A DNA stretch of 64,000 nucleotides, taken from positions 50,533 through 114,532 of the forward strand of contig JAWKOK010000006.1 in NCBI GenBank assembly GCA_041391205.1. The letters run 5' to 3'. The stretch's first letter is position 1; each line of letters begins with the position of its first letter. This stretch comes from Caldilineaceae bacterium (GTDB lineage Bacteria > Chloroflexota > Anaerolineae > Caldilineales > Caldilineaceae). The notes under the pieces are model-generated. The model was not told the origin of the DNA, searched no databases, and saw only the letters and a list, made by a program, of their open reading frames with translations. The translations under genes and the position numbers were made by a program. Positions 13,991 through 57,672 of this stretch are shown here, one piece after another.

Positions 13991-14038
13991 TCACCGACAC
14001 GACAGTCACCCGGCAGACGTTTGCCCCAGGAGGAGACC

Positions 14039-14338: not shown

Positions 14339-14359
14339 CCGGCGCGGAGCCGGCTTCAC

Positions 14360-15122: not shown

Positions 15123-15166
15123 CCCGGAATGTGGGGCGGCTCGCCGCCGGGAAAGGAGGACCGACC

Positions 15167-15947: not shown

Positions 15948-15960
15948 AGGAAGGCATGCG

Positions 15961-18046: not shown

Positions 18047-18096
18047 GCGAGCCACACCCGAGCCGCGGATCTATTTTTCACGAGCGAGATAAGCCC

Positions 18097-24000: not shown

Positions 24001-25695
24001 GGCACACACGCGGTAGACGTGCGCGAGGCCGACCCGTCCACCGACGGCGCGCTGCCGGCTTGCCCGCGCTACGTCGTGCGCAGCCGCATGCAGGGTCTAC
24101 CGCGCAGCCGGGGCGCCACGCTCACCGGTCTCTATCTCATCACCGAGGATGCCATGGGCGTCGCGCCCCACGTGGCCGAGGAACTGCGCCGGCGCGGTGC
24201 GGCGGCGACCGTCATCGGGCGCGGGCAGTTGGTCTCCTTCGAAGCGGTGGAGACGGCGGTGCTCCAAGTGCGGCGGCAGAGCGGTCCCGTGCGCGGCATC
24301 GTGCACCTCGCCCCGTTGACCACGCACCCCATGCCGGATACCCTGGACGCCTGGAAGCAGACCACCCAGCAGGAGTGCAAGAGCCTCTTCCAACTGCTCC
24401 GCCTCTGCGCACCGGACCTGGCCACACCTGCGGACGAAGGCCGGCAAGCGGTGGTGGCGGCCTCGTTCATGGGGGGGTATTTCGGCCGGGACGGCGCGGT
24501 GGAGCCGGGGCTGCCGTCCGGGGGCAGCAGCGTGGGCCTGCTGAAATCCCTGCGCACGGAATGGCCCCATCTCCACGTGCGCGCCGTGGACTTGGACGGC
24601 TATGTGGACGCACACGAGAGCGCGGCGCTCATCGTCGCCGAGCTGCTGGCCGACGACAGCACTGTGGAGGTGGGTTACCCCATGGGCATGCGCGCCGTGC
24701 CGGAGATCGTGGCGGCGCCGCTGCCGGAGCAACTCGTCGGTCGCCACTACCCCGCGCCTGCGTCGGATTGGGTGGCGTTGGTGACGGGCGGGGCGCGCGG
24801 CATCACGGCCGCGATTGCGCGCCGGCTGGTGCTGCCCGGCATGACGGTCCACGTAGTGGGGCGCACGCCGCTCGCCGCGCCCGAGGCTGACGAACTGGCC
24901 GCGTTACACGACGTGCAGGCGCTGCGCGATCACTTCATTGCGCAAGCGCGCGCGGCCGGCACATCCGCCACGCCGGCTGCGCTGGAAGAGCAGGTGCGCG
25001 CCGTCCTGCGCGGGCGGGAGATGCGGGCCAACTTGGCGCAGTTGGAGGCCCAGGGTGCGCGGGTGGAATACCACGCCGTGGACGTGCGCGACGAAGCGGC
25101 CATGCAGACGTTGCTGCGCGGCATCTACGCGCGCTTCGGGCGGCTGGACGTGGTGGTCCACGGCGCCGGTGTCATTGCCGACCGCCTGCTGGCCGACAAA
25201 GATCCCGCGGCGTTCGACCGTGTGTTCGACACCAAGGTGGACAGCATCTACCTGTTGAGCCGCTTCCTGCAGCCGGAGACGCTCAAGCATGTGATGCTCT
25301 TCGGCTCGGTGGCGGGGCGTCACGGCAACGTGGGGCAGACCGACTACGCCGCGGCCAACGAGGTGCTGAACCGTTTCGGCTGGTGGCTGCGGGGCCGGTG
25401 GCCGTCGGTCCACGTGACGACCGTCAACTGGGGGCCGTGGGCCGGCATCGGCATGGCGGACGCGGCGATCATGGACGCGTTGCGGGCGCGCGGCATCATG
25501 CCCGTGGCGCCGGAGGCCGGCATCCGCTTCTTCATGGACGAACTGGTGCACGGCGACGGGACAAGCGAGGTGATCGCGGGCGACGGTCCGTGGCACGCCG
25601 ACGCCACTCCGCCCGCGGCCCACAGCATCGACCTGCACGCGCTCTTCCACGAGATCGATCTGGCGGTGGAACAGATTTGGCGCAGCGACGCGTGA
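18097..25695 (+). CDS. Single-module type I polyketide / secondary-lipid synthase: NMO-like, PfaD-type enoyl reductase, KS, AT, ACP, KR
   Basis: Domain evidence: ER has YPIIQGPMTRVSD...FEGRECGGHIGP...VFAGGIHD. KS has DVAIIGISLIMPGA, VDAACA-SSL (Cys codon 20781-20783), EAHGTGT, GHTKNAAG. AT has FLFPGQGAQ, GHSFGE, GPFHSPLM. ACP has LGVDSIKRIEIL. KR has VTGGARGIT...GSVAGRHGNVGQTDYAAAN. The gene is intact over 18097-20720 and 21200-23880. There are about 6 frame switches in 20720-21200 and one near 23900. Confidence 0.85.
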
Positions 25696-25733
25696 CCGGG
25701 GGCGGCGCGCAGGGCGCGGACGGGAGGCGTGCC

Positions 25734-26576
25734 ATGGCAGAGCAGGCGGCTACGATCGAGCAACAGCTACGCCGCAATGCCGCGTTGTATTTTCCCCACG
25801 CGCTGGGGAAGGTGGCGCCCAAGCACGTGGCCAAAGAGGCGTCAGCCTATGCCCGCGCGGCGGTCGCTCGTGGCACGCCGCTGCGCGCCAAATTCGTCAT
25901 CATGACGCGCGGGCGTGCGGGCAGTGGTCTGCTGGTCGATCTGCTCAACAGTCACCCGCAGATTCGCTGCCAGACCGAGCTGCTCCACGACCGCATGTTG
26001 TTTCCGCGGCGCTACCTGCGCGCCAACGAACGGCTGGCCAGATTGCCGGTCTTCGGCTTCAAGCTGCTCTCCTACCAGATGATCGGCGTGCAGAAACTCG
26101 CCAGCCCGGCCGGGTTCCTGCACGAGCTTGCCGGCGACGGTTACTCCGTGATCTACCTCTGGCGGCGCAATTTGCTGCGCCAGATTTTGTCGCTGCTCTA
26201 CGCCGCGGAGCGACGCTCGTTCCACAGCCACGCCGGCGACGATGTCGCCCACACCACCATGCGTGTGGACCCGGCGATCGTGCTGAGCTGGCTGGAGTTC
26301 AGCACCCGGTTGGGCGAGTGGGAGCGTAGTGTGCTTGCCGAGCTGCCGTATGTCGATGTGACCTACGAGGACGATCTCAGCCGCAGCGAGGCTCAGCAGG
26401 CGACGGTGGCGCGCATCACCACGCGGCTGGGACTGGAGCCGGCGCCCGTGCAGTCCACGCTCACGCCGAGCACCCCGCGCGCGCTCGACGACTTCGTGGC
26501 CAACGCGGACGAGTTGCGCCGCAGCCTGGCCGGTACACCGTACGCCCAGTATCTGGACGCGCCGCACGCCGGCTGA
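25734..26576 (+). CDS. Stf0-like sulfotransferase
   Basis: GGGAGG precedes ATG 25734. The intact 280-aa protein has FVIMTRGRAGSGLLVDLL (PAPS loop) and VIYLWRRNLLRQILS, comparable to the Stf0 (trehalose 2-sulfotransferase) family layout. Confidence 0.65.
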   Translation: MAEQAATIEQQLRRNAALYFPHALGKVAPKHVAKEASAYARAAVARGTPLRAKFVIMTRGRAGSGLLVDLLNSHPQIRCQTELLHDRMLFPRRYLRANERLARLPVFGFKLLSYQMIGVQKLASPAGFLHELAGDGYSVIYLWRRNLLRQILSLLYAAERRSFHSHAGDDVAHTTMRVDPAIVLSWLEFSTRLGEWERSVLAELPYVDVTYEDDLSRSEAQQATVARITTRLGLEPAPVQSTLTPSTPRALDDFVANADELRRSLAGTPYAQYLDAPHAG

Positions 26577-27764
26577 TTGCGCCTCGTCCCGACGCCGGCC
26601 GACGCGCGCCCGTCCGGCCCACATGAGAGGTTGGCTGATCCATTGACGATTTCCACACACCCCAAGTTGGGCTCGCTCCTCTACCACAGCCACCACACCG
26701 TCGGCGTGGGCCATCTGGTGCGCGCCCTCGCCCTGGTGGCGGCGCTGCAAACACGCTTTGACGTGACGTTTCTCTCCGGCGGCGTCTTCCCCGCGGGCCT
26801 GGCGATTCCGCCGGGCGTCAACTTCGTCCAGTTGCCCGCACTCATGCGCGCGGCGAGCGGGCGGCCCCAGAGCGCAGGCAGCGACCGGCCCTGGACCGAG
26901 ACCATGGAATTGCGGCGCGCGGCGGTGCTGGCTCACTTTGCGCACGTCGCGCCCGCCGTGGTCGTGGTCGAGTCGTTCCCCTTCGGCCACCGGCTGTTGA
27001 TGAGCGAGCTGCTCTCGTTGTTGGACGCCAACCGCCACCGCGCGGGCGGTCCGGCCCGCGTCTACGCCAGCATCCGGGACATCATGGAGCGGGACAAGGA
27101 CGCCCCAGTTGTACGACGACCTGGCCGCCAGCCTGGCCAACCACTACTTCGACGGCATTCTGGTCCACACCGACCCGCGCTTCATCACCCTGGACGCCAC
27201 CTTCCAGCCCAAGGTGCCGCTGGCGTGCCGGTCCACCACACCGGCTTCGTGACGAGGACCGGCCCGTTGACTGCGCCGGAGCGTGACGCGACGCCCGCCA
27301 GGCCGTACCTGCTGGCCTCGGCCGGGGGCGGGCGGGTCGGCGGGCCGCTGCTGCGGGCGGTGCTCGCGGCCTACCTTGCGTCCGACCTGCCACGGCGCGT
27401 GGACCTGGTCGTGGTCACGGGGCCGTTTTTGCCGGAGGAAGAGTGTGCCCGGCTGGAGACGACGGCGGCGCGCTATGCCAATGTCAAAATTCTGCGCTGG
27501 ACCGACGACATGCGCGGCCTGATGCGCCACGCGGCCGGCTCGGTGAGCCAGTGCGGCTACAACACGACCATGGACCTGTTGGCGTCCGGCGTGCCCGCGC
27601 TGGTCGTGCCCTATCACACGCCCCACGACTTTGAGCAGAGCACCCGCGCCGCGATTGGCGGGCGCGGGCTGGTGCGCACGCTCGCGCCCGGCGCGCTGGA
27701 TGAAGCCGCCCTGGGCCGGGAACTGGCTGCGCTGCTGGACTTCAAGCCGGCGCACCGGGCCTGA
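26577..27764 (+). CDS. Glycosyltransferase, GT28/MurG-like C-terminal domain family (start uncertain; contains a compensating frameshift pair)
   Basis: LLYHSHHTVGVGHL is the N-terminal G-rich loop, and SVSQCGYNTTMDLLASGVPALVVP is the Glyco_tran_28_C motif. Region 27103-27224 reads sensibly (QLYDDLAASLANHYFDGILVHTDPRFITLD) only in another frame. Confidence 0.65.
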   Translation: MRLVPTPADARPSGPHERLADPLTISTHPKLGSLLYHSHHTVGVGHLVRALALVAALQTRFDVTFLSGGVFPAGLAIPPGVNFVQLPALMRAASGRPQSAGSDRPWTETMELRRAAVLAHFAHVAPAVVVVESFPFGHRLLMSELLSLLDANRHRAGGPARVYASIRDIMERDKDAPVVRRPGRQPGQPLLRRHSGPHRPALHHPGRHLPAQGAAGVPVHHTGFVTRTGPLTAPERDATPARPYLLASAGGGRVGGPLLRAVLAAYLASDLPRRVDLVVVTGPFLPEEECARLETTAARYANVKILRWTDDMRGLMRHAAGSVSQCGYNTTMDLLASGVPALVVPYHTPHDFEQSTRAAIGGRGLVRTLAPGALDEAALGRELAALLDFKPAHRA

Positions 27765-27880
27765 ACCTGGACGGCGCGGCCACCTGCCGCACAGATCGTG
27801 GCCGCCGCCGTCGCACAAGATGCCGTCGCACGGGGTCCGGTCGCCGACGGCAATGTCGCCCACCCAGGAGGCAGTCGCCC

Positions 27881-29075
27881 ATGAGCGCGGACCCGCAGAC
27901 ACGGCCGCGCTGCGGCTTGATCATCAACACGTTGAAACCCGAGGGCGGCATGGGACTCTCCGTGCGCCGCCACATCCACCTGCTCGCGGACGACGTCGAC
28001 ATCATCCCCATCGCGCTGGAACTGTCGGGCAACGAGCGGGATTGGTGCGGACGGGTGGAGCAGCTGACGCTCGACGGCGTGCGCGCCTACCGCATTCACG
28101 CCGCGGACCTGCGCGTCGACCGGGTGAGCGGCAACACGGACATGCGCCATCGCACCTTTGTGGACGAGTTGGTGCGCATCGCCCAGCGAAAGCTGGACGT
28201 GCTGCACGTCTTCGGCGCATTCGAACTGCGCCCCTTCGTGGCCGCGTTGGCCGCGGTCGAGGCCGACATCCCGCTCATCGTCACGTTTCGCGGCTCGGAC
28301 CTGGACATCCGCATCTTCGGCAGCAACTTCGCCCACATGCAGGCCGCAGTGCGCTGCGCCGCCGCCTGCGTCTGCCTCAACGCCGGCGCGCCGGGTGGTG
28401 GAGCGGGTGCTGCAGCCGCAGGCGACAGTCTACGAAATCCCGAACCACATCGAGCCGGAGCCTGCCGACGGTGCGCCGCCCGCGCCCGTCCGCTTGAGCC
28501 ACGACGGCGCGCCGGTGATCGGGTGCGTGGGCGAGTTTCGCCGGGTCATCGGGCTGGACTGGCTGTTGGCGGCGTTCGCCCGGGTCGCCGCGGAGATGCC
28601 GTGCCGGCTGGCGCTCATCGGCCCCGTCCGCGACACGGAGGCGCTCTACTACACGCCGCTCATCGACCGCCATCCCTTCGTGCAGCGCATTCTGCGCGTG
28701 GGACCGGTGGAGCACGCGCAGATTCCGGCCTATCTCAACGCCTGCGATCTGCTCGTCTTCCCGTCGGTCAGCGACGGCTCGCCCAACAAGGTGCTGGAAG
28801 CCATGCGCGCGGCGCGCCCCATCATCGCAGCGCCGGTGGGCGGCATTCTCGAGATGATTCGGCACGAGCGGGAGGGGCTGCTGGTCGACCCGCGCGCCAC
28901 CGACGACCTGGCCGCGGCCATCACCCGCCTGCTGCGTAACCCCGAGGACGCGCGCGCGTTGGGGCAGGCGGCACGTGAACGCGCCATGACCCACTTCACC
29001 GCCGCGCGCGAGTTGGCGGCGTGGCAAGCATGTTATCGCGCGGTGTTGGGCAAGGGAGAGCCGGCGCGCGGTTGA
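27881..29075 (+). CDS. Glycosyltransferase family 4 (frame-disrupted once, near 28385)
   Basis: AGGAGG precedes ATG 27881. The C-terminal FPSVSDGSPNKVLEAMRAARPIIAAPVGG is the GT4 E-x7-E region. Confidence 0.7.
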
Positions 29076-29098: not shown

Positions 29099-32070
29099 TC
29101 AGGCAAGCTGCCGCTTGGCCAGTTCGTGGAAGAGGCCGGGCTGGGCCATCAACTCGGCGTACGGGCCCGACTGCACCACCTTGCCGTCCTGGATGACGAA
29201 GATGCGGTCGGCCGCCACGATGGTGCTCAGCCGGTGGGCGATGACAATGCGCGTGACCTGGAGACCGTCCAGATTTTCGCTGACGATGCTCTGGGTTTCG
29301 TTGTCCAGCGCGCTGGTCGCTTCGTCGAAGATGAGATAGCGGGGGTGTCCCACCACGGCCCGGGCGATCATCAAGCGCTGCATCTGGCCGCCGGAGAATG
29401 TTGAGCCGCCCTCGGCGATCATGGTGTACATGCCCATGGGCATCTGTTTGATGTCGTTGGCCAGCCCCGCGATGCGCGCAGCTTCCCAGGCGTCGTCCTC
29501 GGAGAGCAGCGACGTGCCGACAATGTTGTCCAGCACGGTGCCGGGCGTCACCTTCCCGTTCTGCAGGACGACGCCGATCTGTCGCCGCACCGCCTGCACG
29601 TTGAGCGTGCGCAGATCCTGGCCGTCGTAGTAGACGCCGCCGCCCTTCACCGGCTCCTCGAACCCCAGCAGCATACGCACGATGGTCGACTTGCCCGCGC
29701 CCGACGGCCCGACGATGGCGACCATTTCCCCCGGCTTGGCGTCCAAGGTGATGCCATCCAGCACCAGCGGACCGTCGGGGTCATAGCGGAAGCTGACTTG
29801 ATACAGCGCCACGCGGCCGTTCAACACGCCGGGGTCGGCCTTGCCGGTGGTGACTTCCGGCCGCGTCTGGAGGATGGGCCGCGCCCGCTCGAAATAGGGC
29901 ACCGCGTTGAGCACGCCGGTGAAGGCCTGCACCTGTTTGAGCGACGCGCTCAGAAACTGGCTGAAGGCCACGTTGAACGAGACGAAGACGCTCACCGAAA
30001 AGGTGTTGCCGCCCAGCCAGAGCGCGATGGACGCAAAGATGGCCATGGAACTGATCAGCGGAAACGCAGATTTGAAGAAGGCGAGCAGATTGTCCACGGT
30101 GCCCGCGGCGTAGGCGTAGTGCTGCTGCTTGGCATAGCCGTCCGACCAGACGCCGAACGCGGTGTCCTCCGCGCCGGCGATGCGAATCTTGCTGATGCCG
30201 GTGAGCAGTTGCAGCACGAGGCCGGAGACCTCGCCCTGGAGCTGAGTGGTCTGCCGCTGGAAGCGCAATTGATAGTAGCTTGTGCCCACGCTCACGCCGA
30301 CGATGATGAGCGCCAGCAACAGCGCCACCAACGCCAGCGCCGGGCTGAGATAGAAGAGCAGCCCGAAGTTGACCAGCGAGAAGACGCCGCTGACCATGGC
30401 CGTGATGGTGGCGTCGCTCAAGAGTTGGCGAATGTTGTTGATGCCGTAGGCGCGGCTGGCCAGGTCGCCCGCGGTGTAGCCGCGGAAGAAATCCACCGGC
30501 AGGCTGAGAAGGCGATCCCAGATGGCGGCGGCCAGCGCACCCGTGCTCTTGGTCTGAAAGCGCAAGATGGCGAACTGCTGAACGATGGAGAAGAGCATGG
30601 TGGCGACCGCGGCCATGACCAGGGCCGCGCCGATGATCAGCAGCTCCGAGCGCTGGTTGTTGGGAATCAGCGTGTGCACGATCCAGCCCGTGGCGATGGG
30701 GATGAGCAGGCCGAGCAACGCCATGGCCAGCCCCATGAGCCCGATCATGATGAGGTCGCGCCGCATGCCCTTGAGGCTGAAACGCACCATCTCCCGGGTC
30801 GAGACGGGTTCGTCGCCGAACTTGGCGTAGAAAACGTACGCATCCGGCTGCAACGTCTTGGCCACGTCCGCGGTGACGGGCACGCTCGTGCCGTCGGCCT
30901 TGACCATGCGGTAGCGGGTGGGCGATTTTTGAGCAGGGCGACCGGCGTGCCGTCGGTGGTGATGGCCAGGAGGGGACCGTTGTCCTTCTGCCACCACTGA
31001 TCGGCCAGACGCACCCGGCGCTTTTGGACGCGCGAGGCGAAGGCGATCTGGTCCAACTCGTCACGGTTGGCCAGATCGCGCTCGGCCTCGATGGGCGGCA
31101 CAAACTCCAGGCCCATCACGTCCCCGATCAGACGGCAGACGCGCAGCAGATCGGAGTCGGCGGGACCGGCCACCGCGCTCTCTGCGGGTGCGCGGCCCAC
31201 GTCCAGCACACGGGCCAACCGGGCGGCGCCGTCGGTGACCACGCTCTGCCGGAAGTCCAGACGCTCCTGCAACTGCTGCGTCAGCGCGGCCAGGGTCGAC
31301 GCGGCTGGGCCGCGAGCGGCCTGCACCTGGGCATGCAGGGACTCCACCAACGTGGACGGCGGCACCTGCGCGATGGCATCGGCCGCGGCCAGGTGGCCAG
31401 ATTGACGGCCGACTCGGCCTGAAGCCACACGTCGAAGACGTCGCCCTGTTCGGCCAAGGGAATCCACTGGTCGCCGGCAAGCTCCGGCAGCGCCAGCGTC
31501 CCACCGATTTTACTGTGACCGTCGCTTTGGTGCACCCAGACCACCGGGGCATCGGGGCGGGCGGCCTTGTCCTTGTCCAATTGCACGGTCTGGCCCGCCT
31601 GCAGCGGCGTGGCGTCGTTGGGCGGGAAGGCGCTGCCCAGCACCGCGGTGACGGCTGCGACCCACGCGTCCAGCCCGGCGGCGACCTGGGCGCGGGATGC
31701 GTCAGCGGCCGCCTGGGCGTCGAGCCAGTTGGCGTCGAGCTTGGACAACCGGGTGTCGCTGTCGCCCACGGCCAGCAAGCCGATGCTGACGGCGCCCGTG
31801 CCGTCGGCGGCCGCCTCGTTACCGGCGGGCGTGGCCGGCACGCCGAGCATGAGCGCGCCGGCGTGGAGCGTCCCCACATACTCGCGCGCCGATGACGTCG
31901 CCGCCTTGCTGGGGCACGGAAAAGAGGTCGACCTCGCCCTGTGTCACGACCCAGACGGTCTGGGGGTCGGACAACAGGATCGGCTTGTTGCCGCCGTAGA
32001 CGTCAGGCGGCGCGCTCTGGGTTGCCACGTCCACAAGAGACGGCGGCGCGCCGTTGGCTTGTTCGCTCAT
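29099..32070 (-). CDS. NHLP-type bacteriocin-export ABC transporter permease/ATPase with N-terminal cyclic-nucleotide-binding-like region (frame-disrupted near 31870, 31400 and 30990)
   Basis: The N-terminus VWVVTQGEVDLFSV is cNMP-binding-like. Six TM helices follow, then Walker A GPSGAGKST, signature FSGGQMQR, Walker B LIFDEATSALD and VIAHRLSTI. The ATG overlaps the upstream gene's stop. Confidence 0.75.
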
Positions 32071-34337
32071 GCGGCACCTGCGCTTTTGGCGGCGTCGCCC
32101 GCGGTGTAGTCGGTGAGCGCGCCCTGCGCCTGGATCAACTCGCGGTAGGGGCCGTCGACCTGGATCATCTCCTGGTGGGTGCCCCGCTGCGCCACCTTGC
32201 CGTGCTGCAACACGATGATCTCATCGCAGTCACGGATGGTGCTCAGCCGGTGCGCGACGATCAGACAGGTGCAGCCGCGCCGGCGCAGATTTTGGTCGAT
32301 CTCGGCTTCGGTGGGCGGGTCGAGCGCGCTGGTCGCTTCGTCCAAGATGAGCAGCGTCGGCTCCAGGACCAGGGCGCGGGCAATCTCCAGACGCTGCGCC
32401 TGGCCGCCGCTGAAGTTTGAGCCGCCCTCCTCCACGTGGCTGTGGTAGGCGTTGGGCCGGGCCGCGATGGCATCGTGGATGCAGGCGTCGGTGGCCGCGG
32501 CGATCACTTGGTCCGAGGGAATGGTCGTGTCCCATAGCGTCAAGTTCTGCATGACGGTGCCGTCGAAGAGAAAGATCTCCTGGTCGACTTTGGAGAGGGA
32601 ATTGGTGACCACGCGACGGTCCACGCGCAGGCGCGGCCGGTTGTCAAAGAGGATGTCGCCCGACCACGGTTCGTAGAGACCCACCACCAGGTTGGCGATG
32701 GTCGACTTGCCGCTGCCGGTCGCGCCCACCAGAGCCACGCGGCTCCCCGGACGCAGCGTCAAGTTGAAGTCTTGGATGAGCGGCGGTTCGAGCCGATTGT
32801 AGCCGAAGGTCACGTTGCGCAGCTCCAACATGCCGCTGAGTTGGGGCAGCGTCAACGCGCCGGCGCCGGCCGCGACATCACCCGGACCGGGCAGCCCCGG
32901 ATCGGTGTCGGTGTCCAGCAGATCGTCCAGGCGGAAGAGCGCGCTCTTGGTCTCCTGGTAGGTGTTGCCCAGATCCAGCAGGTCGCCCATGGGGTCCAGG
33001 AAGCTGCTGGACAGTGCCTGGAAGGCGACGAGCATGCCCACGGTCATGCGGCCGTCCATGATGAGCAGGCCGCCGAAGACGAGGATGACGGCCGCGCTCA
33101 GCCCGTTGAGCAGCGTCGGCACCGAGTTGAGGATCTGGGTGGGTGCGCTCAGGGCCTGCTGCGCGTTGTAGACGCGTGCCTGGAGTCCGGACCAGCGGGC
33201 AAAGAAGTCGGCTTCGGTGCCCGTGGCTTTAAGCGTCTCGATCATGGAGATGCCGTTCATGGAGACGCCCAGCAGCTTGCCCCGTTCCTGCAACATGCGC
33301 TTGCTGGAATCGGAGATGAGCCGGGAGATGAGGCGCAGCACCACGATGTTGATGGCGCCGAAGCCCACCGCCACCAGCGTCAACGGAATCGAATAGTAGA
33401 GCATGAGGAGGAGGTAGAAGAGCGCCAGCACCAGGTTAAGCAGCGCCAGCACAAGCTCCTGGGACAGCAGCGCCGCCACCGTGTCGTTCAAGCCGATGCG
33501 CGAGCCGATCTCGCCGCGGTAGCGCTGGGTGAAGAAGTTCATGGGCAGCCGCAGCACGTGCCACAGGAACTCGGCCGACATGGTCACCGCCAGCTTCATG
33601 CGCAGGCGCAGCAGGTAGTGGGCCTGCAACCAGGTCAACGCGGCCAGGAGCACGGCCGTCACGCCCATGCCGATGAGGAGCACCACCAACTGGCTGCGCA
33701 GTTCGTTGCCCAGATAGTTGTCGATGAACAACTGGGTGAAGATCGGCACGAGCAGCCGCGGGAAGATCAGCCCCAAGCTGGCGAGGATGACGAAGAGCAG
33801 GTTGCGAAAATTGCCCTGGAGACGTCCGGCCAGGGCGCGCATGACGCTGGGCGATTGGCCGCCCTTCTTGAAGTCCGGCCCCGGCTTCAGGGTGATGGCC
33901 ACGTCATCCAGCGCGCTCTTGAAGTCGTCATGCGCCATCTTCTTGACGCCGCTGGACGGGTCGTTGACGTACAGCACCTTGTCATCGTAGCCCTCGACGA
34001 CGACGTACTGGCCGCCCTCGAAGAGCGCGATGAGCGGCGTCGGCATGGTCAACACCTTCTTGACGCCGATGTCATCGTGAAGTTCGGCCTCGAGCCCGTA
34101 CTGGCCCGCGGCCTGGACCACATAGTTGGGCGGCGCGCCGTCCCGGGAGATGCCGCAGGCCTTGCGCAACTCCTCGAGTTCAACATAGCGGCCGTAAAAG
34201 CCCAGAATGACGGCCAGCGCCACCGCACCCGACTCCGTCGCCTCCATCTGCACGATGGTGGGCGTGCGCCGGCGTCGCTGCGTCTGCGGCGCAGGATCGG
34301 GCGGGGACTCGGCTGTCTGCTTCGGCTCGGATGACAT
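32067..34337 (-). CDS. PCAT-type ABC transporter (NHLP family peptidase/permease/ATPase architecture) with a catalytically degenerate C39-like domain
   Basis: Intact 756 aa. The N-terminal domain aligns to peptidase C39, but QMEATESGAVALA replaces QMEAVECGAA, and GGQYVVVEG replaces the catalytic-His block. The ABC part has GATGSGKST, FSGGQAQR, LILDEATSALD and VAHRLSTI. Confidence 0.85.
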   Translation of the reverse strand: MSSEPKQTAESPPDPAPQTQRRRRTPTIVQMEATESGAVALAVILGFYGRYVELEELRKACGISRDGAPPNYVVQAAGQYGLEAELHDDIGVKKVLTMPTPLIALFEGGQYVVVEGYDDKVLYVNDPSSGVKKMAHDDFKSALDDVAITLKPGPDFKKGGQSPSVMRALAGRLQGNFRNLLFVILASLGLIFPRLLVPIFTQLFIDNYLGNELRSQLVVLLIGMGVTAVLLAALTWLQAHYLLRLRMKLAVTMSAEFLWHVLRLPMNFFTQRYRGEIGSRIGLNDTVAALLSQELVLALLNLVLALFYLLLMLYYSIPLTLVAVGFGAINIVVLRLISRLISDSSKRMLQERGKLLGVSMNGISMIETLKATGTEADFFARWSGLQARVYNAQQALSAPTQILNSVPTLLNGLSAAVILVFGGLLIMDGRMTVGMLVAFQALSSSFLDPMGDLLDLGNTYQETKSALFRLDDLLDTDTDPGLPGPGDVAAGAGALTLPQLSGMLELRNVTFGYNRLEPPLIQDFNLTLRPGSRVALVGATGSGKSTIANLVVGLYEPWSGDILFDNRPRLRVDRRVVTNSLSKVDQEIFLFDGTVMQNLTLWDTTIPSDQVIAAATDACIHDAIAARPNAYHSHVEEGGSNFSGGQAQRLEIARALVLEPTLLILDEATSALDPPTEAEIDQNLRRRGCTCLIVAHRLSTIRDCDEIIVLQHGKVAQRGTHQEMIQVDGPYRELIQAQGALTDYTAGDAAKSAGAA

Positions 34338-34407: not shown

Positions 34408-35241
34408 TCAGCGCCCGAGAATCAGGTCGATGGGCCGCTGCTCTTCGGTGATGACCTGCGCCTTGACGGGGGTGCCGGATTTCAACTGGAACGGAGGCCC
34501 GCTGGAGGATGACCACTGGTAGCCGGACTCATTGGCGGCATCCTCCTTGAGGGTCACAATGATCTGAATCACCGGCCCGTGGACGAGAAAGTCTTCAGCC
34601 AGTGTGTCCGTGCCGAAGAGGCCGGCAATGTCGACCGACGTGACCGGGAAGTCGGAGACCGACGTCACCGTCCCCAGCAGATAGCCGTAGGATTCCACGT
34701 CGGCCGTGCCGGGCGTGATCTGGGCGACCATGCCCGGATCGATGACCTTGCCGGAGGTGAGCGGCAGATAGGCCACCACGCTGAGCGGCTGGTTGAGCTG
34801 CTCGACGCTAGCCAAGGTCGCGCCCTGGCGCGTCTGCAAACCCTGGGCCACGTTGACGCCCGTCACCGTGCCCGAGATCACCGTCGTGACCGGGGTCTGG
34901 GTGCCGTCCGCCTGGGTGACCTCGGCGATTTCGTCGCCGTCGGCCACGGTGTCGCCATCGGTCACGCGCACCGCCGTCACCAGCCCGTCCACCGGAGAAA
35001 CGACGGCGCCGCCGTTGGGGCGCAAGAGCAGGCCGCTTCCCGTCACAGCCCGGGGCAGCGAGCCCAGAAAGCTCCAGACGATGATGGCGGCCACCGCGAT
35101 CAACAGGCCGCTCAGCGCCAGCCAGTTGCGCGGATTGGTGACCTGCATGAGTTCGTCCAGACCCAGAGCGGAAGTGACGCGCTTGCGCGCGCTTTGCGCC
35201 GCCCCGGCGGCGTCTTTTTGCGACGGTTTGTCGTTGCTCAT
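34408..35241 (-). CDS. Short HlyD-family periplasmic adaptor / secretion protein
   Basis: Intact 277 aa with one N-terminal TM helix. Barrel-sandwich hybrid segments (VVSPVDGLVTAVRV..GD.V..GD.IA) are present, but no long coiled-coil insert. It lies immediately upstream of the two ABC genes. Confidence 0.7.
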   Translation of the reverse strand: MSNDKPSQKDAAGAAQSARKRVTSALGLDELMQVTNPRNWLALSGLLIAVAAIIVWSFLGSLPRAVTGSGLLLRPNGGAVVSPVDGLVTAVRVTDGDTVADGDEIAEVTQADGTQTPVTTVISGTVTGVNVAQGLQTRQGATLASVEQLNQPLSVVAYLPLTSGKVIDPGMVAQITPGTADVESYGYLLGTVTSVSDFPVTSVDIAGLFGTDTLAEDFLVHGPVIQIIVTLKEDAANESGYQWSSSSGPPFQLKSGTPVKAQVITEEQRPIDLILGR

Positions 35242-35368: not shown

Positions 35369-36327
35369 TCAAAATGTGGCCGCCGCGGCCATGCGCACGT
35401 AGACTTCGCGCTTGCCCGGAGGCGAGCCCCGCCGGCCATGCATCACGCGCCAGTTGTCGACCATGACGATGTCGCCCGCCTGCCAGGCGACGGGCGTGGT
35501 GCACTGTTCGCAGACCGTGGCGAATTCCTTGAGCAACTCGGGCGCGAAGGGGCTGCCGTCATCCCAGCGCACCACCAGCGGCATGCTCACGGCGTCGCCG
35601 GCGGCGTTGGTGACCCCGCTGCCCAGGGCGCGCTCGGCCATGACCACGGTCAGGATGTTGTTGATGAACCGGAGCCTGCCCGCGTCGTCCGTCACCAGCG
35701 CAGAGCAGGTGAACGAGGTGCGCAGCGTGCCGGTGGCGGCGTCGAACTCCATGGACGTGTCGTTGGCGGCGCAGACGTCACGCACGACGTCGATGTCATC
35801 GGTCTGGAAGGTGGTCTGCCAGTCGCCGTCGGCCAGGGTGCGGTCGTAGCGAATGGGGGCGTGCGCAGAAGTTCCTGGGTGGCAGGCGAGAGCGCGGCGA
35901 AGATCTCGGCGCCGTCGCCCAGGGTCGTCTCGCCGTCGCGCTCGGGCGGAATTTCGCAGCGGAACCAGAGGATGCGCGGCCGGATCTTGAGATAGAACAT
36001 CTCGCCGTGGAGCGGCATGGGGAAGCCCTGGGAGCCGCCGGTCACGGACAGGATCGTGGACTCATCGTTGATGGCGCGCCGGTCAAAGCTACGGAAGCGG
36101 AAGCCGCCGCCCTGGTAGGTGAGGAAATCGCTGCCGTAGCAATCGGTGAAGGTGCGAAACTCGTCCAGGGTGGAATTGAAGCCGCGCAGGACCAGCGCAC
36201 CGCTGCGGGAGAACAGATCGACAATCTGACGCTCGTCCAGATCCAGGACCGACTCACCGTTGTCGTTGCTGATCACGGTACCGTAGGTCGCAGTCAAGGG
36301 GCTGACGAGCAGCGTTCCTGTTGCCAT
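35369..36327 (-). CDS. TauD/TfdA-family Fe(II)/2-oxoglutarate dioxygenase (one frame switch near 35790-35860)
   Basis: The C-terminal WQAGDIVMVDNWRVMHGRR is the classic TauD motif. The N-terminal part LVLRGF...MPLHGEM contains the H-x-D/E-type iron-ligand region. Confidence 0.65.
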
Positions 36328-36505
36328 GATGTTTCCTTCATCGAGTTCAGTGATTTGGACCAAGGACAATCGGCACAACCATCCCGGCAATAGTCAGGCG
36401 CGTCATCCAACGGTTTGAAGACGCGCCCTCCTGCCAGCATATGATATGAAGATTCGCTGCGCCGGCGCGCGCGACGTCGCCGCAGCGCGGCACTACGACC
36501 GGCCG

Positions 36506-36796
36506 TCAACTGCGATGGCTGATGTAGCCGTCCAAGAGGTCGTGCAGGTCGGTGATCGGCGTCACTTCCACGTCGTGGACGTAGATGAACTTGTAGCGTC
36601 GCAGCCATGTGGCCAGCGATTCGTTGGAGTCGACGTTGACAACCCAGACGCTGCCGCCGCTGACAAGACCATAGGCAGCTTCGATGATGCCCTTGTCCAT
36701 CCCCTGCTGAATCATGTCCTTGCCTTGCTGAATGGCCTCAGGGCTGGCGTTCTGCAAAATGCTTCCGCGTGGTTTGCTGACAATCAAGAATTTCAT
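36506..36796 (-). CDS. 96-aa muconolactone-isomerase-like (ferredoxin-fold, MIase/DUF3303-type) protein
   Basis: A strong RBS, GAGGAGGG, lies 7 nt before the ATG. The size and pattern (MKFLIV...G.I...Y....G.....V.DV.S.E.L...L......V.V.P) match MIase-family small proteins. Local GC content is reduced. Confidence 0.45.
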   Translation of the reverse strand: MKFLIVSKPRGSILQNASPEAIQQGKDMIQQGMDKGIIEAAYGLVSGGSVWVVNVDSNESLATWLRRYKFIYVHDVEVTPITDLHDLLDGYISHRS

Positions 36797-36913
36797 GCGT
36801 TGATCCCTCCTCGTGATCCGGCTTTCACATTACCAACAAAAAACATGAAGATTTCAGTCACGCAATTTCTTCACATTTCGAGTGGCAGCAACACCATTGG
36901 CGCAACCTCACGT

Positions 36914-36942
36914 ATCATAGGGTAGCGAATTGGTGCTGTCAA
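36914..36942 (-). promoter_or_regulatory. Near-consensus sigma70-type promoter for the MIase-TauD-HlyD-ABC-ABC operon
   Basis: On the minus strand: TTGACA, 17 bp, TATGAT (plus-strand coordinates 36937-36942 and 36914-36919). It lies about 115 nt upstream of the 96-aa ORF. Confidence 0.45.
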
Positions 36943-37431
36943 CAGCCATGGCGCCCTCAGGCCGTCCCAAGTTTTTGGGCCGTCACAGGCCGGCGATGGA
37001 CCCTCGCACCCGCGCGCCACGCACCCGCTCACACCCGTCAATGGGTCGATATGCCTGCCCCAACATTCTGGGACGAGCCACGCGCATCCACGCGTCGCCC
37101 CATGCGTCTCAACACCCGGAGACAGTGCCGGACGACACACCAAATCCTGCACGCGCGCGTGGTTCCCCTCTGGCGTGCCGGACCGTCGCGTCGCAGCGCT
37201 GCCGGACAGGGCCGTGCGGGCGGAGCTGCGCCGGGACCATGCCTTTCGCCAAGAAACCGGGACGTCGGACGCCGTTGCACACCGAAATTGGGCAAATTCG
37301 GGCCGTTTGGCCGGGGGTGACGGCCGCGCGTAGCGTGCAGCAGCGGAATCGTGCACAATACGCCCGTTTCCGCCGACTCGTCCCCGCCTGCAGTCCGACC
37401 CTTACGCTAGAATGGCAAGAAAGGTGGAGGT

Positions 37432-38404
37432 ATGGCCCGTTATCTTGTGACCGGCGGCGCCGGCTTCATCGGCTCCAATCTCGTCCATGCGCTGCTGGCA
37501 CAGGGCCGGCACGTGCGCGTGCTGGATGACTTCAGCACCGGCCGCCGCGCCAACCTGGACGAGATCGCCGGCGAGATCGAACTGCTCCAAGGCGATCTGC
37601 GCGATCCGGCCACGTGCGCTCGGGCGGTCGCCGGCGTCGACTTTGTCCTGCATCAGGGGGCCGTACCATCCGTTTCGCGCAGCGTGCGCGATCCGCGCCT
37701 CAGCCACGACGCCAACGCCACGGCAACGCTGAACATGCTCATCGCCGCGCGCATGCCGGCGTCAAGCGTTTCGTGCATGCCTCCTCCTCGTCCATCTACG
37801 GCGATGCGCCGACGTTGCCCAAGCAGGAAGAGATGGCCCCGCGCCCCAAGTCACCCTACGCGGTGGCCAAGCTGGCGGCGGAGAGCTACTGTCGCGTCTT
37901 CAACGAGCTGTACGGGCTGGAGACCGTCTGCCTGCGCTACTTCAATGTGTTCGGGCCGCGCCAAGACCCACAGTCACCCTACTCGGCGGTGATTCCGCTC
38001 TTCGCCACGGCCATGCTCAGGGGGAACGGCCGGTGATCTACGGCGACGGTCTCCAGTCGCGCGATTTCACCTTTGTCGCCAACAACATCGCGGCCAATCT
38101 GCTGGCCACCACCGTGCCCGGCGTGGGCGGCCAGGTCTTCAACATTGCGTGCGGCCGGCGCTACACGCTGCTCGATCTGGTGGAGCGCTCAACCGCATCC
38201 TGCACACGCATCGAGCCGGAGTTTCGCCCCGCGTCCGGCGACGTCAAGCACTCGCTGGCGGACATCACTCAGGCCGAAACGGGATTGGGCTACCGTGTGC
38301 AGGTCGATTTTGAGGCAGGGCTGGCCCAGACGGTGGCGTGGTATCTCCAGGGAGGCAGCGGGCTGCAACAGATGGAACGAGTCGCGGCGTCAAACGGCCG
38401 GTAG
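37432..38404 (+). CDS. NAD-dependent nucleotide-sugar epimerase/dehydratase (SDR, UDP-hexose 4-epimerase-like), frame-disrupted
   Basis: TAGAAT and AAGGTGGAGG lie upstream. [12 protein letters not shown] (Rossmann), SSSSIYG, and [10 protein letters not shown] (YxxxK) are present. Frame switches occur near 37755, 38030 and about 38200. Confidence 0.8.
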
Positions 38405-40036: not shown

Positions 40037-41098
40037 TCACGCCGGACATGACGCCGTTAACGTGGTCACCATCAGGTGCTGATAGGTGGTTTCGGGGAAC
40101 ATGACCCACGGCTGCGGACCCGGCTCGGTGGTGAAGTTGGGAAGATTTCCGTTGCTCTCGGGCACGAAGACCATCATGTGCGGCGGGCTGCCGACAGGGC
40201 CGCCGCCCTGGAGCATGTAGCCGAAGCCGATGCCGGTGGCCGGCGCGTCGGTCAAGTTGCGCTGGGCCATGAGCACCTCGAAGTACGTGTCATTCAGGCA
40301 CATGGGATCGTTGCCCGGTGTGTCGGGAATGTCTGCGATGCAGGTCCAGCCGTTGTCGCCGGGCAGCAGCTCGATCAACGCCGGCGCAGCCTCATCCGGC
40401 CAGTTCCCCGGCCATTCCTCCGGGTAGCCCATGATCCGCGCGCCCTCGGCGATGGCCGCCGGACCCGCACTCCGGGCATTGGCAACTTCGTCCTCTGCCG
40501 CGGGGATCGCATCCACGGGAGGCGGCGCGAGAACCATCAGGTGCTGATAGGTGGTTTCGGGGAACATGACCCACGGCTGCGGACCCGGCTCGGTGGTGAA
40601 GTTGGGGAGATTCCCGTTGCTCTCGGGCACGAAGACCATCATGTGCGGCGGGCTGCCGACAGGGCCGCCGCCCTGGAGCATGTAGCCGAAGCCGATGCCG
40701 GTGGCCGGCGCGTCGGTCAAGTTGCGCTGGGCCATGAGCACTTCGAAGTACGTGTCATTCAGGCACATGGGATCGTTGCCCGGTGTGTCGGGAATGTCCG
40801 CGATGCAGGTCCAGCCGTTGTCGCCGGGCAGCAGCTCGATCAGTTCCGGCGCCGCCTCATCCGGCCAGTTCCCCGGCCATTCCTCCGGGTAGCCCATGAT
40901 CCGCGCACCCTCGGCGATGGCCGCCGGCCCTGCACTCCGGGCATTGGCAACTTGCTCGTCGGTGGACATAGGCGCCGCGGCTGTGTCCGTTGCGGCGCCA
41001 TCAGTCTCGACGGGTAGATCGAGGGGTTGGCATGCACTCAGCAGCAGCCCGATGGACAACAAGAGCAGAAGACCCAACAGCGTATTGACGTTCTTCAC
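40037..41098 (-). CDS. Secreted lipoprotein built from two near-identical 155-aa repeats, function unknown
   Basis: GTG 41098 lies 5 nt after GAGGAGG. The signal peptide has lipobox LLSAC. The segment ANARSAGPAAIAEGARIMGYPEEW...PETTYQHLMV occurs twice. Confidence 0.7.
   Translation of the reverse strand: MKNVNTLLGLLLLLSIGLLLSACQPLDLPVETDGAATDTAAAPMSTDEQVANARSAGPAAIAEGARIMGYPEEWPGNWPDEAAPELIELLPGDNGWTCIADIPDTPGNDPMCLNDTYFEVLMAQRNLTDAPATGIGFGYMLQGGGPVGSPPHMMVFVPESNGNLPNFTTEPGPQPWVMFPETTYQHLMVLAPPPVDAIPAAEDEVANARSAGPAAIAEGARIMGYPEEWPGNWPDEAAPALIELLPGDNGWTCIADIPDTPGNDPMCLNDTYFEVLMAQRNLTDAPATGIGFGYMLQGGGPVGSPPHMMVFVPESNGNLPNFTTEPGPQPWVMFPETTYQHLMVTTLTASCPA
40068..40951. repeat. Tandem direct duplication, period 465 bp, about 97 % identity over about 420 bp per unit
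   Basis: 40068-40486 versus 40533-40951 differ by only about 12 substitutions. The duplication is in-frame (155 codons). Confidence 0.85.
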
Positions 41099-41447
41099 AG
41101 CGACCTCCTCATTTGGTTGAAGAACAGACCCGAGGAAACGGCGGATCGTGCGTGTCGCGGACGGTGCGTGATGCGCAAGATCACATCCCAACTCGTGCTG
41201 AAACCGCCATCGCCCACAGTTGCCGGGTTGGTGATGCTTGCGTTTGGGCGAATCCGTAGACACGCACCCGCCGGCAGCCTTCGGGGCGGGGAGAAAATGG
41301 ACGGCGATGGCTCCACCCCATGAAAACACACGACGATTGCGGGCGGGTATCCCTGTGTGATACCATTTGGGATACTGCCGACCGGACAACCGAACCACCA
41401 TGGCGCCCACGGGTACAGGAGAGGATACAGCGCGTAAGCGCCCGAAA

Positions 41448-44400
41448 ATGGACCAAATCACCGCGTTCGATGACTGGATACGACGCCGGCGCAAGGCGTT
41501 GGATTTGACCCAGGCCCAGCTTGCGGCCCGGGTCGGCTGCGCGGTGGTCACCATCAAGAAGATCGAGCAGGCCACGCGGCGCCCGTCGCAGCAGATGGCC
41601 GAACTGTTGGCCGACGCGCTTGCCATTCCGGAGGCAGACCGGGCGCTCTTCCTGCGCATGGCGCGCCACGACTACGTCGCCCCCAGCGCGCTCCCCACAA
41701 TCGTCCAGGACGCGACGGCCGACGCCGCGCCGGCCGCCGCTTTCCTGGAATGGCGCGGGCCGAGTCCCTTCGTCGGGCGGGCGCACGAGATGGCGCAACT
41801 GGACACGCACCTGACCGGCGCGCGCAACGGCAGTGGCCGCATCGTCTTCATCTCCGGCGAGGCGGGACGCGGCAAGACGACGTTGATGACCGAGTTTGCC
41901 CGCCATGCATTGGCAACCTATCCGGATCTGATCGTCGCCGGTGGCAACAGCGAAGCCTACGCCGGAACAGGCAATCCGTACCTCCCGTTCCGCGACATCC
42001 TCGCCTTGTTGACGGGCGACATGGAGACGCCCGGACACGTGCGGGGGCTGTCGCAAGATCAGGTGCGCCGGCTCTGGACGCTGCTGCCCTTTTCCGCCCA
42101 GGCCATCTTGGAACAGAACCCCGACCTCATCGACGTGTTCGTCGGCGGTGCGCGCCTGCGCCGGCAGGTTCTGGCCCACCCCATCGCCGCCACGCTCTGC
42201 CGGGCGCAGATTGAGGCGCTTGACCAGCGCCCCGCGCGTCCCGGCAACGTGCCGCAGCGCCGGCTGTTTGAACAGTATGCCCAACTGCTGCGTACGCTCG
42301 CGCAGCGACAGCCGTTGCTTCTTCTGCTCGACGACCTCCAGTGGATTGACCGGGCGTCAGCGGACATGCTGTTCCATGTGGCAAGGCGTTTGACCGGCAG
42401 CCGCATTCTCTTTTTGGGCACCTTCCGGCGCAGCGAAATCGAAACCGGCGCACCCGCACACCATACGCCAAACCACCCACGCCGGAGCGGGCACAGCGAG
42501 GAGCAGGTTGATGGCCGCGCTGGGGAGCACGACGGGGCTGAGATGCCGCACCAGCATGTGCTCACGCCGCTGCTCCAAGAACTCAAGCGTCGCTACGGCG
42601 ATATCGAGATCAACTTGAGCCAATCGACGCCGGAGCGGGATCGCGCCTTTGTGGATGCCCTGCTCGACAGCGAGCCGAACGAGTTGTCCGAAAGCTTTCG
42701 CGCCAAGCTGTTCCAGCGCACACAAGGCCATCCACTCTTCACGGTCGAACTGTTGCGCGACATGGAGGAGCGCGGCGATCTGGTGCAGGATTCAGCCGGG
42801 AATTGGGTCGAAGAGCGGACGGTGGATTGGGAAGCGCTGCCCGCCCGGGTGGAAGCGGTGATCAGCCGGCGCATCGGACGGCTGCCCGCGGCCCTACGCG
42901 AGGCGCTGAAAGTCGCCAGCGTGGAAGGTGAGACCTTTGCGGCGGAGATCATCGCCCATATTTTGGGGACGGATGGCTGGGAACTGGTGCAGCAGCTAAG
43001 CGGAGTCGCCGGCCGGCAGCACCATTTGATCGTCAGCCAGGGGCCGCAACGTCTGGGCAGCCAGTTGCTGTCGTACTATCGTTTTGTCCACATTCTGTTT
43101 CAGGACTACCTCTACGGACTGCTGGATGCAGCGGAACGGGTCTATCTGCACGAGGCGGTGGGGAACGCATGGGAAACGCTGGCGGCCGGCCGGACGGATG
43201 CGGTGGCCATACAGTTGGCCCGCCATTTCCAAGCCGCCGAACTGCCGGACAAAGCCATCACCTATCTCCATGTGGCCGGCAGGCAAGCCATGGCCCTGTC
43301 CGCGCATCACCAGGCGATTGCCCACCTGACCGACGCCCTGGCTCTGCTGCCGGCGCGCAATGGTACGCAAGCACGCGACGAGCGCGAGCTTCAACTCCTG
43401 ACCGATCTGGGCATCTGCTACAAGATCACCAAGGGCTTTGCCATGCCGGGCGTGGAGGAGGTCTACCGCCGCGCCCAGGAGTTGTGCGAAACGGTGGGAG
43501 ATGCGCTGTCCCGAGCATGCGTGTTGTGGGGCTTGCACAGCGTCTATATCGTGCGCGGCGAGTTGGTCGCCGCCTACAAACCGGCACAAGAATGTTTGGC
43601 GCTGGCTGGGGATGAATCGCTTTTGCATGTCACCGCCAACTCCATGCTGGGCTGCGCGCACAGCCACATGGGCGATGTGCGCGCAGCACGCGTCCATTTC
43701 GAGCGGGCGTTCGACGCCTATCGAGCGGACCAGCACCGCACGTACATTTTCTTGGCGGGACTCGACCTGGGCGTCTTCACCCTTGCCCACCTGGCTCATG
43801 TCTTATGCTATCTCGGCCATCCGGACCGGGCGCTGGAGACCGCACACGCGGCAGTGGACCTGGCACAGTCGCTGGCACATCGGTTCAGCCAGGCCGCAGC
43901 CTTGAGTTACCTGACCATGCTCCACCAGTTGCGCGGTGACCGGCGTGCCGTGCGGGTCGCGGCCGCGCAGACCCATCAACTCTGCGAAGAATACGACATT
44001 CCGTATTACCTGGCCTGGTCAACGTTTATGCTGGGATGGGGCATGGCCGAGCACCAACAGAACGAGGAGGGGATTCTCCGCATGGAGCAGAGCCTTGCCG
44101 ACCTCCTGGCCATGCAGACAGGTCTGCGTCGTCCGTACTATCTCGGCTTGCTGGCGGAGACATACACCACGGTCGGGCGCATCGACGACGGCCTGGCGCT
44201 GATCGCGGAGGCGCTTGCCGTCGTGGACGAACAGGATCAGCGGCTCTACGAGCCTGACTTGCATCGCATTCAAGGCCAGTTGCTGTGGGAACAGGCCGCA
44301 CCGGACGCAGCGGTCGAAGCCTGTTTTCGGCGCGCGCACGAACTTGCCCGGGCCCAGGAAGCGAAACTCATGGAAGTGCGGGCAGCCACGGCGCTGGCCC

Positions 44401-57644: not shown

Positions 57645-57672
57645 GAAGAACCTGGTGTGAGAAGAACCCGTC

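Follow-up and report, generated by a model that had tools for sequence, protein, structure and literature searches.

Two groups of C39 domains are recognised, i.e. active domains and degenerate C39-like domains (CLDs) that lack the Cys (PMC6363468, PMC8277102), and CLDs have been described for the RTX type I secretion systems of Gram-negative bacteria (PMC8277102, PMC6363468). In CLDs of the HlyB type the Cys is replaced by Tyr, Leu or Asn and the His is retained, stacked on a conserved Trp; the cargo, which consists of large RTX proteins with C-terminal signals, is bound on a different face, and the HlyB CLD, itself devoid of proteolytic activity, is needed to tether the cargo (PMC8277102). 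In the active group, the catalytic residues are Gln21, Cys27, His101 and Asp117 in LahT (PMC6363468) and Q15, C21, H99 and D115 in PCAT1 (PMC6959990). The Gly-Gly specificity of PCAT1 has been explained by the narrowness of its cleft; residues A55 and I59 touch the leader's Leu-7 and Leu-12, and loop 91-98 shifts by ~5 Å on cargo binding, opening a path into the membrane cavity (PMC6959990). With the C21A variant of PCAT1, cargo is not cleaved but is still bound by the peptidase domain and placed at the lateral opening (PMC6959990).

Here we analyse a 64-kb stretch of DNA from a Caldilineaceae bacterium (Chloroflexota; contig JAWKOK010000006.1), referred to below as the window, which carries an ATP-binding cassette (ABC) exporter gene, ABC1, whose C39 domain has Ser and Gln at the positions of the catalytic Cys and His. 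ABC1 would be the peptidase-type half of a three-gene NHLP-type exporter, with an HlyD-like adaptor and a second half-transporter (ABC2) as its partners. The reading that we favour, with a probability of about 0.7 and partly by analogy with the systems above, is that the C39-like domain, conserved but non-proteolytic, docks or gates cargo for a heterodimeric ABC exporter. Full-text searches of an incomplete literature collection found no paper describing such an NHLP-type variant.

Catalytic positions of the ABC1 peptidase-like domain

The ABC1 open reading frame (ORF) lies on the minus strand, which is marked as coding at 32067-34337 by a third-position G+C of 0.90 (G+C of the window, 66%). 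Its translation of 756 aa is free of stops and contains both of the strings, VQMEATESGAVALAVILGFYG and FEGGQYVVVEGYDDKVLYVNDP, from which a sequence-only reading of this DNA had proposed that the peptidase domain has lost its Cys and His. The region marked in that reading, 33887-34265, is about residues 25-150 and corresponds to the Pfam Peptidase_C39 match (Table 1); matches to ABC_membrane (residues 180-450) and ABC_tran (residues 522-670) cover the other two domains. ABC1 scored 939.7 bits against TIGR03796 (NHLP-type peptidase/permease/ATPase subunit; cutoff 853.3) over model positions 1-710 of 710, and its relative P0003 scored 936.6 bits. With 391.5 bits against TIGR01846 (cutoff 725.55) it is not a member of the HlyB family. 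In ABC1 and ABC2 alike, in the window and in three relatives, the Walker A, Q-loop, FSGGQ, Walker B (including its catalytic Glu) and H-loop motifs of the ATPase are consensus. As had been proposed, ABC1 is an uninterrupted ORF with intact ABC motifs.

In a phmmer search against the PDB the domain matched LahT150 (6mpz) best (E 2.5e-24), followed by PCAT1 and ComA. Gln30, Ser36, Gln110 and Asp126 of ABC1 align with Gln21, Cys27, His101 and Asp117 of LahT, and the register against PCAT1 is identical; the four residues occupy the positions of the oxyanion Gln, the nucleophile Cys, the general base His and the triad Asp, respectively. An active C39 domain has Cys and His together with the Asp and the oxyanion Gln, and ABC1 retains Gln30 and Asp126 but has Ser36 and Gln110 in place of the Cys and His. 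A check of the alignments for a catalytic Cys or His elsewhere in ABC1 gave no alternative register, i.e. none against LahT150 or PCAT1 brings either residue to positions 36 and 110. The changes of Cys to Ser and of His to Gln are thus placed by alignment to both proteins, and Cys and His are invariant in the 110 homologues outside the clade described below, which bears out the original proposal; the Ser codon, read directly at 34230-34232 as TCG, is also two substitutions away from TGY as had been stated. From these positions, we infer that the C39-like domain is non-proteolytic.

An AlphaFold2 model of ABC1, built from a 119-sequence alignment, had a mean pLDDT of 85 and a pTM of 0.74, with block means of 83-94 over the C39-like domain. 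When this model was used as a Foldseek query the PCAT1 structures were the best matches (6v9z and 4ry2; TM 0.80-0.88 over ~718 aligned columns) and HlyB ranked lower. Because ~718 columns were aligned, the peptidase domain is part of the PCAT1 superposition. The model thus shows a PCAT1-like predicted fold and domain arrangement.

Fixation and remodelling in the Ser/Gln clade

We searched 5.8 billion protein clusters with ABC1 and aligned the best 120 of the 2,395 homologues obtained. The clade discussed here consists of the nine full-length clusters closest to ABC1 (P0001-P0009, at 64-99% identity), which comprise 41 member sequences from assemblies of ENA, JGI and Logan, the tenth closest, P0010, being N-terminally truncated and without a C39 domain. 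Ser and Gln are both present in 9/9 clade clusters and in loci L020-L031, and Cys and His are both present in 110/110 of the remaining aligned homologues (<=56% identity). When only the transmembrane and ATPase regions were used for a neighbour-joining tree, the clade was exclusive in 100/100 bootstraps. At the DNA level, seven clade loci use TCG, TCC or TCA for the Ser and CAG or CAA for the Gln, and from this synonymous variation it follows that both residues are maintained. Nei-Gojobori ratios of nonsynonymous to synonymous substitution (dN/dS) for the C39 region were 0.06 between the window and L028, 0.14 between the window and L022, and 0.08-0.13 within the sister subclade; these are slightly higher than those of the transmembrane domain (TMD) and nucleotide-binding domain (NBD), which were 0.04-0.09, and the unconserved N-terminal tail gave 0.3-0.7. 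The C39-like domain is under purifying selection.

These data bear on the possibility that Ser and Gln are a sequencing or assembly artefact, or part of a decaying pseudogene, in a genome rich in broken genes. The window does contain many split genes, i.e. ABC2, with three frameshifts, and genes for family 4 glycosyltransferases (GT4), a polyketide synthase (PKS), and TauD-like, epimerase and GINT1_N-like proteins. However, the ABC1 ORF is itself intact, dN/dS is far below 1, and the same Ser and Gln occur in L028, an independent scaffold from nearly the same organism that is collinear across ABC1 at 96.6% DNA identity, as well as in eight additional clusters from other samples, which answers the objection of a sequencing error that had been raised at the outset. 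Because of the fixation across the clade, the synonymous codons and the low dN/dS, the substitutions can be attributed neither to sequencing error nor to pseudogene decay; as an account of the substitutions themselves this explanation has almost no probability left and is for practical purposes already refuted. With the exclusive clade and the PCAT1-like model, the proposal of an intact, selected gene whose C39 domain is unable to act as a Cys/His protease is supported.

The sequence-only reading had described a loss of two residues. Both substitutions are real, but when the nine clade sequences and the 110 canonical relatives were compared column by column, the remodelling proved much wider, taking in the loop before the His, the change of Ala70 to Pro and a drop in identity across the domain. 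The canonical F-W-N-F-N-H-F strand and loop has become L-(F/T/L)-E-G-G-Q-Y, and Trp106, invariant in 110/110 canonical sequences, is Phe, Thr or Leu in the clade. The equivalents of PCAT1 Ala55 and Ile59 in ABC1 are Pro70 and Val74, and at position 70 all 110 canonical sequences have Ala whereas 8/9 clade members have Pro. The statement that the fold-defining residues are kept holds for Gln30, Gly37 and Asp126 of the window protein but, for the Asp, not across the clade, in which position 126 is Asp in 2/9 members (P0001/L028 and P0002), Asn in 6/9 and Ser in 1/9; the same position is Asp in 108/110 canonical sequences. Further fixed changes specific to the clade include V34T, A39V, P53E, G86L, a one-residue insertion at 90, R132K, D140K and T144D, and the clade has invariant residues of its own, namely His87, Glu107, Lys132 and Lys140.

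Mean pairwise identity in the C39 domain is 0.75 within the clade, 0.70 within the canonical group and 0.40 between the two, compared with 0.80, 0.62 and 0.53 in the TMD and 0.82, 0.70 and 0.67 in the NBD. The divergence is therefore domain-specific, identity between clade and canonical sequences being lowest in the C39 domain. The comparison indicates that on the clade's stem the peptidase domain alone went through a burst of change, which was followed by renewed constraint, and we take the region-wise pattern to be the signature of a functional shift, not of neglect.

A query with the C39 domain against a word-indexed protein database gave 1 match from 51 candidates, and an exhaustive HMMER search with the domain alone against 1.84 billion 50%-identity representatives was used as the survey instead (3,364 proteins at E<=0.001, the nearest 150 being examined). 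Cys and His are both present in 146 of these nearest 150 representatives, with four full-domain exceptions (P0123, P0137, P0145 and P0172; Table 1); P0183/255-302, a partial second stretch of a multi-domain protein, was left out of the exception count. The question of how often the variant occurs can thus be answered for the nearest representative clusters, ~3% of which have lost the Cys, most commonly to Ser, with the Ser/Gln pair found outside the clade in P0123. The loci of P0123 and P0145 (L032 and L033) were placed relative to the clade with neighbour-joining bootstraps of <=28%, and for this reason we claim neither an independent nor a shared origin for their variants; the parallel Cys-to-Ser losses in P0123, P0145 and P0172 hint that the transition may recur. 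A scan for DNA encoding EGGQYVVVEGY in 241 million JGI metagenome records found three contigs, two of which were already in our set, and species-representative genomes contained only distant ABC transporters (<=36% identity), the clade being absent from them at the patterns used. The Ser/Gln clade is rare.

The conservation of Ser36 could also mean that the domain is still a protease which has switched its catalytic type, with Ser36 as nucleophile and a different general base, such as a clade-specific His or Lys. Ser is chemically capable of acting as a nucleophile, Ser36, Gln30 (oxyanion) and Gly37 are all strictly conserved, the four invariant residues peculiar to the clade include one His and two Lys, and Ser is the commonest replacement of the Cys in other degenerate lineages too. 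However, such recurrence needs no catalytic explanation, because Ser is near-isosteric with Cys and can replace it in a single step. In all members Gln stands in place of the general base His, the Asp is Asn or Ser in 7/9, the narrow Gly-Gly cleft has lost the Trp and the loop that give it its shape, and in the predicted topology His87 would lie at the far end of strand 82-88, at the sheet edge opposite residue 110. A switch of catalytic type therefore appears distinctly improbable.

Operon partners, neighbourhood and cargo

The gene order HlyD, ABC1, ABC2 is found in every clade locus, and in the window the ATG of ABC2 overlaps the stop of ABC1 (ATGA). The proposal of an NHLP-type operon was upheld by scores of 939.7 (TIGR03796), 812.7 (TIGR03797, cutoff 709.4) and 202 bits (TIGR03794, cutoff 156.2), and all three module genes exceed the family cutoffs in L020 as well as in the window. 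The adaptor, which is 77% identical to its L022 homologue, matches TIGR03794 in two stretches and without the central alpha-hairpin region, the best being residues 104-275 against model positions 242-416 of 421. Clade adaptors are short (272-293 aa in most loci), and because the canonical relative L035 has an adaptor of 271 aa the short form is a trait of the broader family in these phyla, not one of the Ser/Gln clade.

Using tblastn with the L022 and L020 ABC2 proteins and a DNA alignment, with the 84%-identical L022 system as reference, we found that ABC2 of the window has deletions near 31882 (-2), 31385 (-1) and 30931 (-1), which divide it into four reading-frame segments. All three fall within the N-terminal 380 residues, which are less well conserved, and none is in an obvious homopolymer; the C-terminal ORF of 632 aa, with the membrane and ATPase domains, is intact and is the source of the TIGR03797 score; it could in principle be expressed alone. 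ABC2 is intact in L020, L022, L025 and L030. Split genes also occur at 15900-29050 and 35369-38404 (GINT1_N-like, two GT4, PKS, TauD-like and sugar epimerase/dehydratase genes), at about one frameshift per 2 kb, and given this local rate the absence of frameshifts from ABC1 and the adaptor (3.1 kb together) is unremarkable. The frameshifts in the window reflect either an error-prone assembly or widespread pseudogenisation. The description of ABC1 as part of a functional transporter can therefore be kept in part: ABC1 is intact and selected and the three-gene module is intact in relatives, but in this genome ABC2 has three frameshifts.

ABC2 has a conserved N-terminal extension of ~310 aa (L020 12364-13350 and homologues) with motifs such as GxVDLFxVP and LLAACQLVG, which is present in the Ser/Gln clade and in the canonical L034 and missing from the 707-aa ABC2 of L035. 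It had no Pfam match at E<=1 and, with a six-sequence profile, no PDB match, and a hidden second peptidase domain in the extension is accordingly unsupported.

The neighbours that recur beside the exporter are GT4, GT28-like and GINT1_N-like glycosyltransferases, polysaccharide deacetylase, sugar epimerases/dehydratases, an hglE-like PKS and a DUF3303-like protein, the sugar and PKS kinds being seen in the window and in L020, L022, L025, L029 and L030. In the window, a glycolipid-biosynthesis-like cluster at 14021-29048 (+) is convergent with the exporter and consists of PLOD-type glycosyltransferase, GINT1_N-like, GT4, hglE-like PKS, GT28-like and GT4 genes; it also contains a small ORF that is possibly acyl carrier protein-like by sequence reading and has no Pfam match. 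The DUF3303-like protein (96-118 aa, MKFMLEF...GGGGYAV...) is found within ~10 kb of the exporter in the window, in L020 (21234-21590) and in L025 (19446-19802). Its 96-aa form in the window matches DUF3303 weakly (E 0.0044), and it was rejected as a candidate precursor as it has no match to an NHLP/Nif11 or leader-peptide family.

None of the 35 small ORFs flanking the operon matches NHLP (TIGR03793), Nif11 (TIGR03798) or another leader family, and tblastn with the L035 NHLP precursor gave nothing at E<0.1 in the window or eight other loci, although a precursor may be encoded elsewhere. RTX cargo was likewise rejected for the window, since the nonapeptide GGxGxDxUx occurs in no frame of its 64 kb, although such cargo could also be encoded elsewhere. 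In the canonical relative P0033 (L035) the gene order is LanM, then an NHLP precursor ending in LEAVAGG followed by a Cys/Ser/Thr-rich core, adaptor, ABC1 and ABC2. L035 3056-12460 is a complete class II lanthipeptide locus, with a precursor of 103 aa, the short adaptor and the 707-aa ABC2.

This neighbourhood raises the alternative that the exporter has switched its class of cargo, so that Gly-Gly leaders would no longer be recognised, a PKS/glycosyltransferase product (a glycolipid or glycoconjugate) or an uncleaved protein would be exported, and the domain would act as a receptor or regulator. The glycosyltransferase, deacetylase, epimerase and PKS genes flanking the module in the window and in five other loci, the lack of a detected NHLP/Nif11 precursor near it, the change of the leader-docking Ala to Pro, the rebuilt Gly-Gly cleft loop and the confinement of the divergence to the C39 domain are all consistent with this. 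However, the synteny comes from a few related genomes and could be inherited gene order, and the neighbour survey, while it found clade exporters flanked by glycosyltransferase and PKS genes, found unrelated neighbours beside L032, another Ser/Gln variant. The nearest canonical relative, L034, has Cys and His intact and also lies among sugar-metabolism genes with no precursor, and linkage between the genes of NHLP transporters and of their precursors is often missing (PMC2887384). For these reasons, the neighbourhood is a suggestive but weak pointer to a different cargo, and we consider a switch of cargo class unlikely. We know of no direct link between NHLP-type transporters and lipid or sugar export.

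Two further features of the window lie away from the exporter. A predicted lipoprotein at 40037-41659 (-), with a signal peptide ending in LLSAC and no Pfam match, contains a 465-bp tandem duplication at 40068-40953 (1.9 copies, 97% identical) that gives two near-identical domains of ~155 aa, and a cytochrome c oxidase operon at 53943-57808 (+) encodes subunit II fused to cytochrome c and then subunit I. The core of this subunit I is 100% identical to a protein from a Caldilineaceae metagenome-assembled genome and its next matches are from Anaerolineae, which places the host in the Chloroflexota.

Table 1. Features of the exporter and its surroundings in the window, and exceptions among the nearest C39 domains (positions are those of the window unless a locus is given).
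Feature	Position	Strand	Description
ABC1 subunit gene	32067-34337	-	756 aa; C39-like domain, six-helix transmembrane domain and ATPase domain
C39-like domain, putatively non-catalytic	33879-34265	-	residues 25-153; Pfam PF03412, E 1.9e-21
Ser36 codon TCG	34230-34232	-	nucleophile Cys position (LahT Cys27, PCAT1 Cys21)
Pro70	34128-34130	-	equivalent of PCAT1 leader-docking Ala55
Residues 105-111, L-F-E-G-G-Q-Y	34005-34025	-	rebuilt loop with Gln110 at the catalytic His position (LahT His101, PCAT1 His99)
Gln110 codon CAG	34008-34010	-	catalytic His position
Asp126 codon GAC	33960-33962	-	third triad residue, retained in the window gene
ABC1 ATPase domain	32328-32774	-	Walker A GATGSGKS, Q-loop, FSGGQ, Walker B LLILDE, H-loop AHRLST
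HlyD-like adaptor	34408-35241	-	277 aa; TIGR03794; upstream of ABC1
ABC2 partner gene	29099-32070	-	TIGR03797; downstream of ABC1; ~990 aa in relatives
hglE-like PKS (enoyl reductase/ketosynthase/acyltransferase/acyl carrier protein/ketoreductase), GT28-like gene and GT4	17992-29048	+	Pfam and tblastn with L022 genes; several frameshifted
DUF3303-like small protein	36506-36796	-	96 aa; E 7e-19 and 4e-17 against the 118-aa genes of L020 and L025
P0123	L032 10001-12143		Ser/Gln, Trp kept; same module, unrelated neighbours
P0137			Ala at Cys position, His kept
P0145	L033 7920-10135		Ser at Cys position, His kept, Asn at Asp position
P0172			Ser at Cys position, Arg at His position

Proposed role and comparison with known systems

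We propose that on the stem of a small clade a Gly-Gly-specific cysteine protease domain became a non-catalytic C39-like domain, through the changes of Cys to Ser and His to Gln, the rebuilding of the loop before the His with loss of the Trp, the change of the leader-docking Ala to Pro and, in most members, that of Asp to Asn. Because the domain was held constant again after the burst of change, it should still do something. Located at the lateral entrance of the membrane pathway, it would recognise, hold or gate the cargo without cutting it; a heterodimer with two consensus ATP sites, which we infer to be formed by ABC1 and ABC2, would drive export, and exported cargo would either keep its signal or be trimmed by a different enzyme. 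Such a docking or gating function is suggested by analogy, because PCAT1 C21A binds uncut cargo and the HlyB CLD tethers its cargo.

Several points weigh against this proposal. Docking without cleavage is drawn from analogy, and a Ser nucleophile paired with another base is conceivable in principle, the clade having an invariant His87 and Lys132. The change of the leader-docking Ala to Pro implies that canonical leader binding may be lost, and a structural or regulatory role would then be more likely than cargo recognition. The frameshifts in ABC2 and the split neighbouring genes may mean that the system is inactive in this organism, or that the assembly is error-prone.

Non-catalytic C39-like domains have so far been described for Gram-negative RTX-toxin secretion, and their origin and ligands are debated. 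The clade would be a young case with a traceable origin, since its members are still recognisable as belonging to an NHLP-type protease family and have close catalytic relatives at hand. The defined set of substitutions (nucleophile, base, cleft loop and leader-docking residue) makes reversion feasible, and the contribution that the domain makes to transport, other than cutting, can be tested directly in the clade. The implication for genome mining is that annotation as TIGR03796 or 'peptidase C39' is no guarantee of leader removal. Should an NHLP-type exporter in fact have changed its job, with the former protease domain re-fixed as a receptor or gate for a different cargo (a PKS/glycosyltransferase product or an uncleaved protein), which we regard as a tentative and rather doubtful idea, C39-like domains would have been reached by a second and independent route, here in a bacterium that probably has no outer membrane. 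The result is relevant to the fields of peptidase-containing ABC transporters, type I secretion and genome mining for ribosomally synthesised and post-translationally modified peptides, and is no categorical surprise.

Like the canonical TIGR03796 proteins (of the LahT and L035 type), ABC1 gives a full-length match to the family hidden Markov model and has the same domain order, TIGR03797 and TIGR03794 partners, the same gene order and the stop/start overlap, with LahT150 as the best PDB match to its domain. Unlike them, it belongs to a clade in which the Cys, the His and mostly the Asp are replaced, the FWNFNHF loop is rebuilt and the leader-docking Ala is Pro, and whose domain is 40% identical to the canonical ones, which are 70% identical among themselves; unlike in the L035-type loci, no precursor or modification enzyme was found near the clade exporters. 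The engineered PCAT1 C21A is similar in that its nucleophile has been removed in a PCAT1-like architecture, on which the AlphaFold2 model of ABC1 superposes. However, C21A is a laboratory point mutant that traps cargo, whereas the natural variant carries numerous additional changes in its cleft and docking helix and has been kept by selection as a working protein.

The sequence-only reading had likened ABC1 to the HlyB-type situation, and as an analogy this is apt, in that the clade, like HlyB, PaxB and LktB, has an N-terminal, non-cutting C39 fold without the nucleophile Cys on an otherwise intact ABC exporter. It does not hold as an assignment, as Ser takes the place of the Cys, the His and the Trp are both gone, the TIGR01846 score is below its cutoff, and no HlyB CLD chain appeared in the PDB sequence search at E<=1. 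The clade systems differ from those of HlyB also in their Chloroflexota host, in an adaptor without the hairpin region and in a two-gene ABC pair in place of a homodimer. By these sequence comparisons the domain is a CLD only in a loose sense, i.e. it is best seen not as one of the HlyB-type CLD family but as an independently degenerated member of the NHLP-type family.

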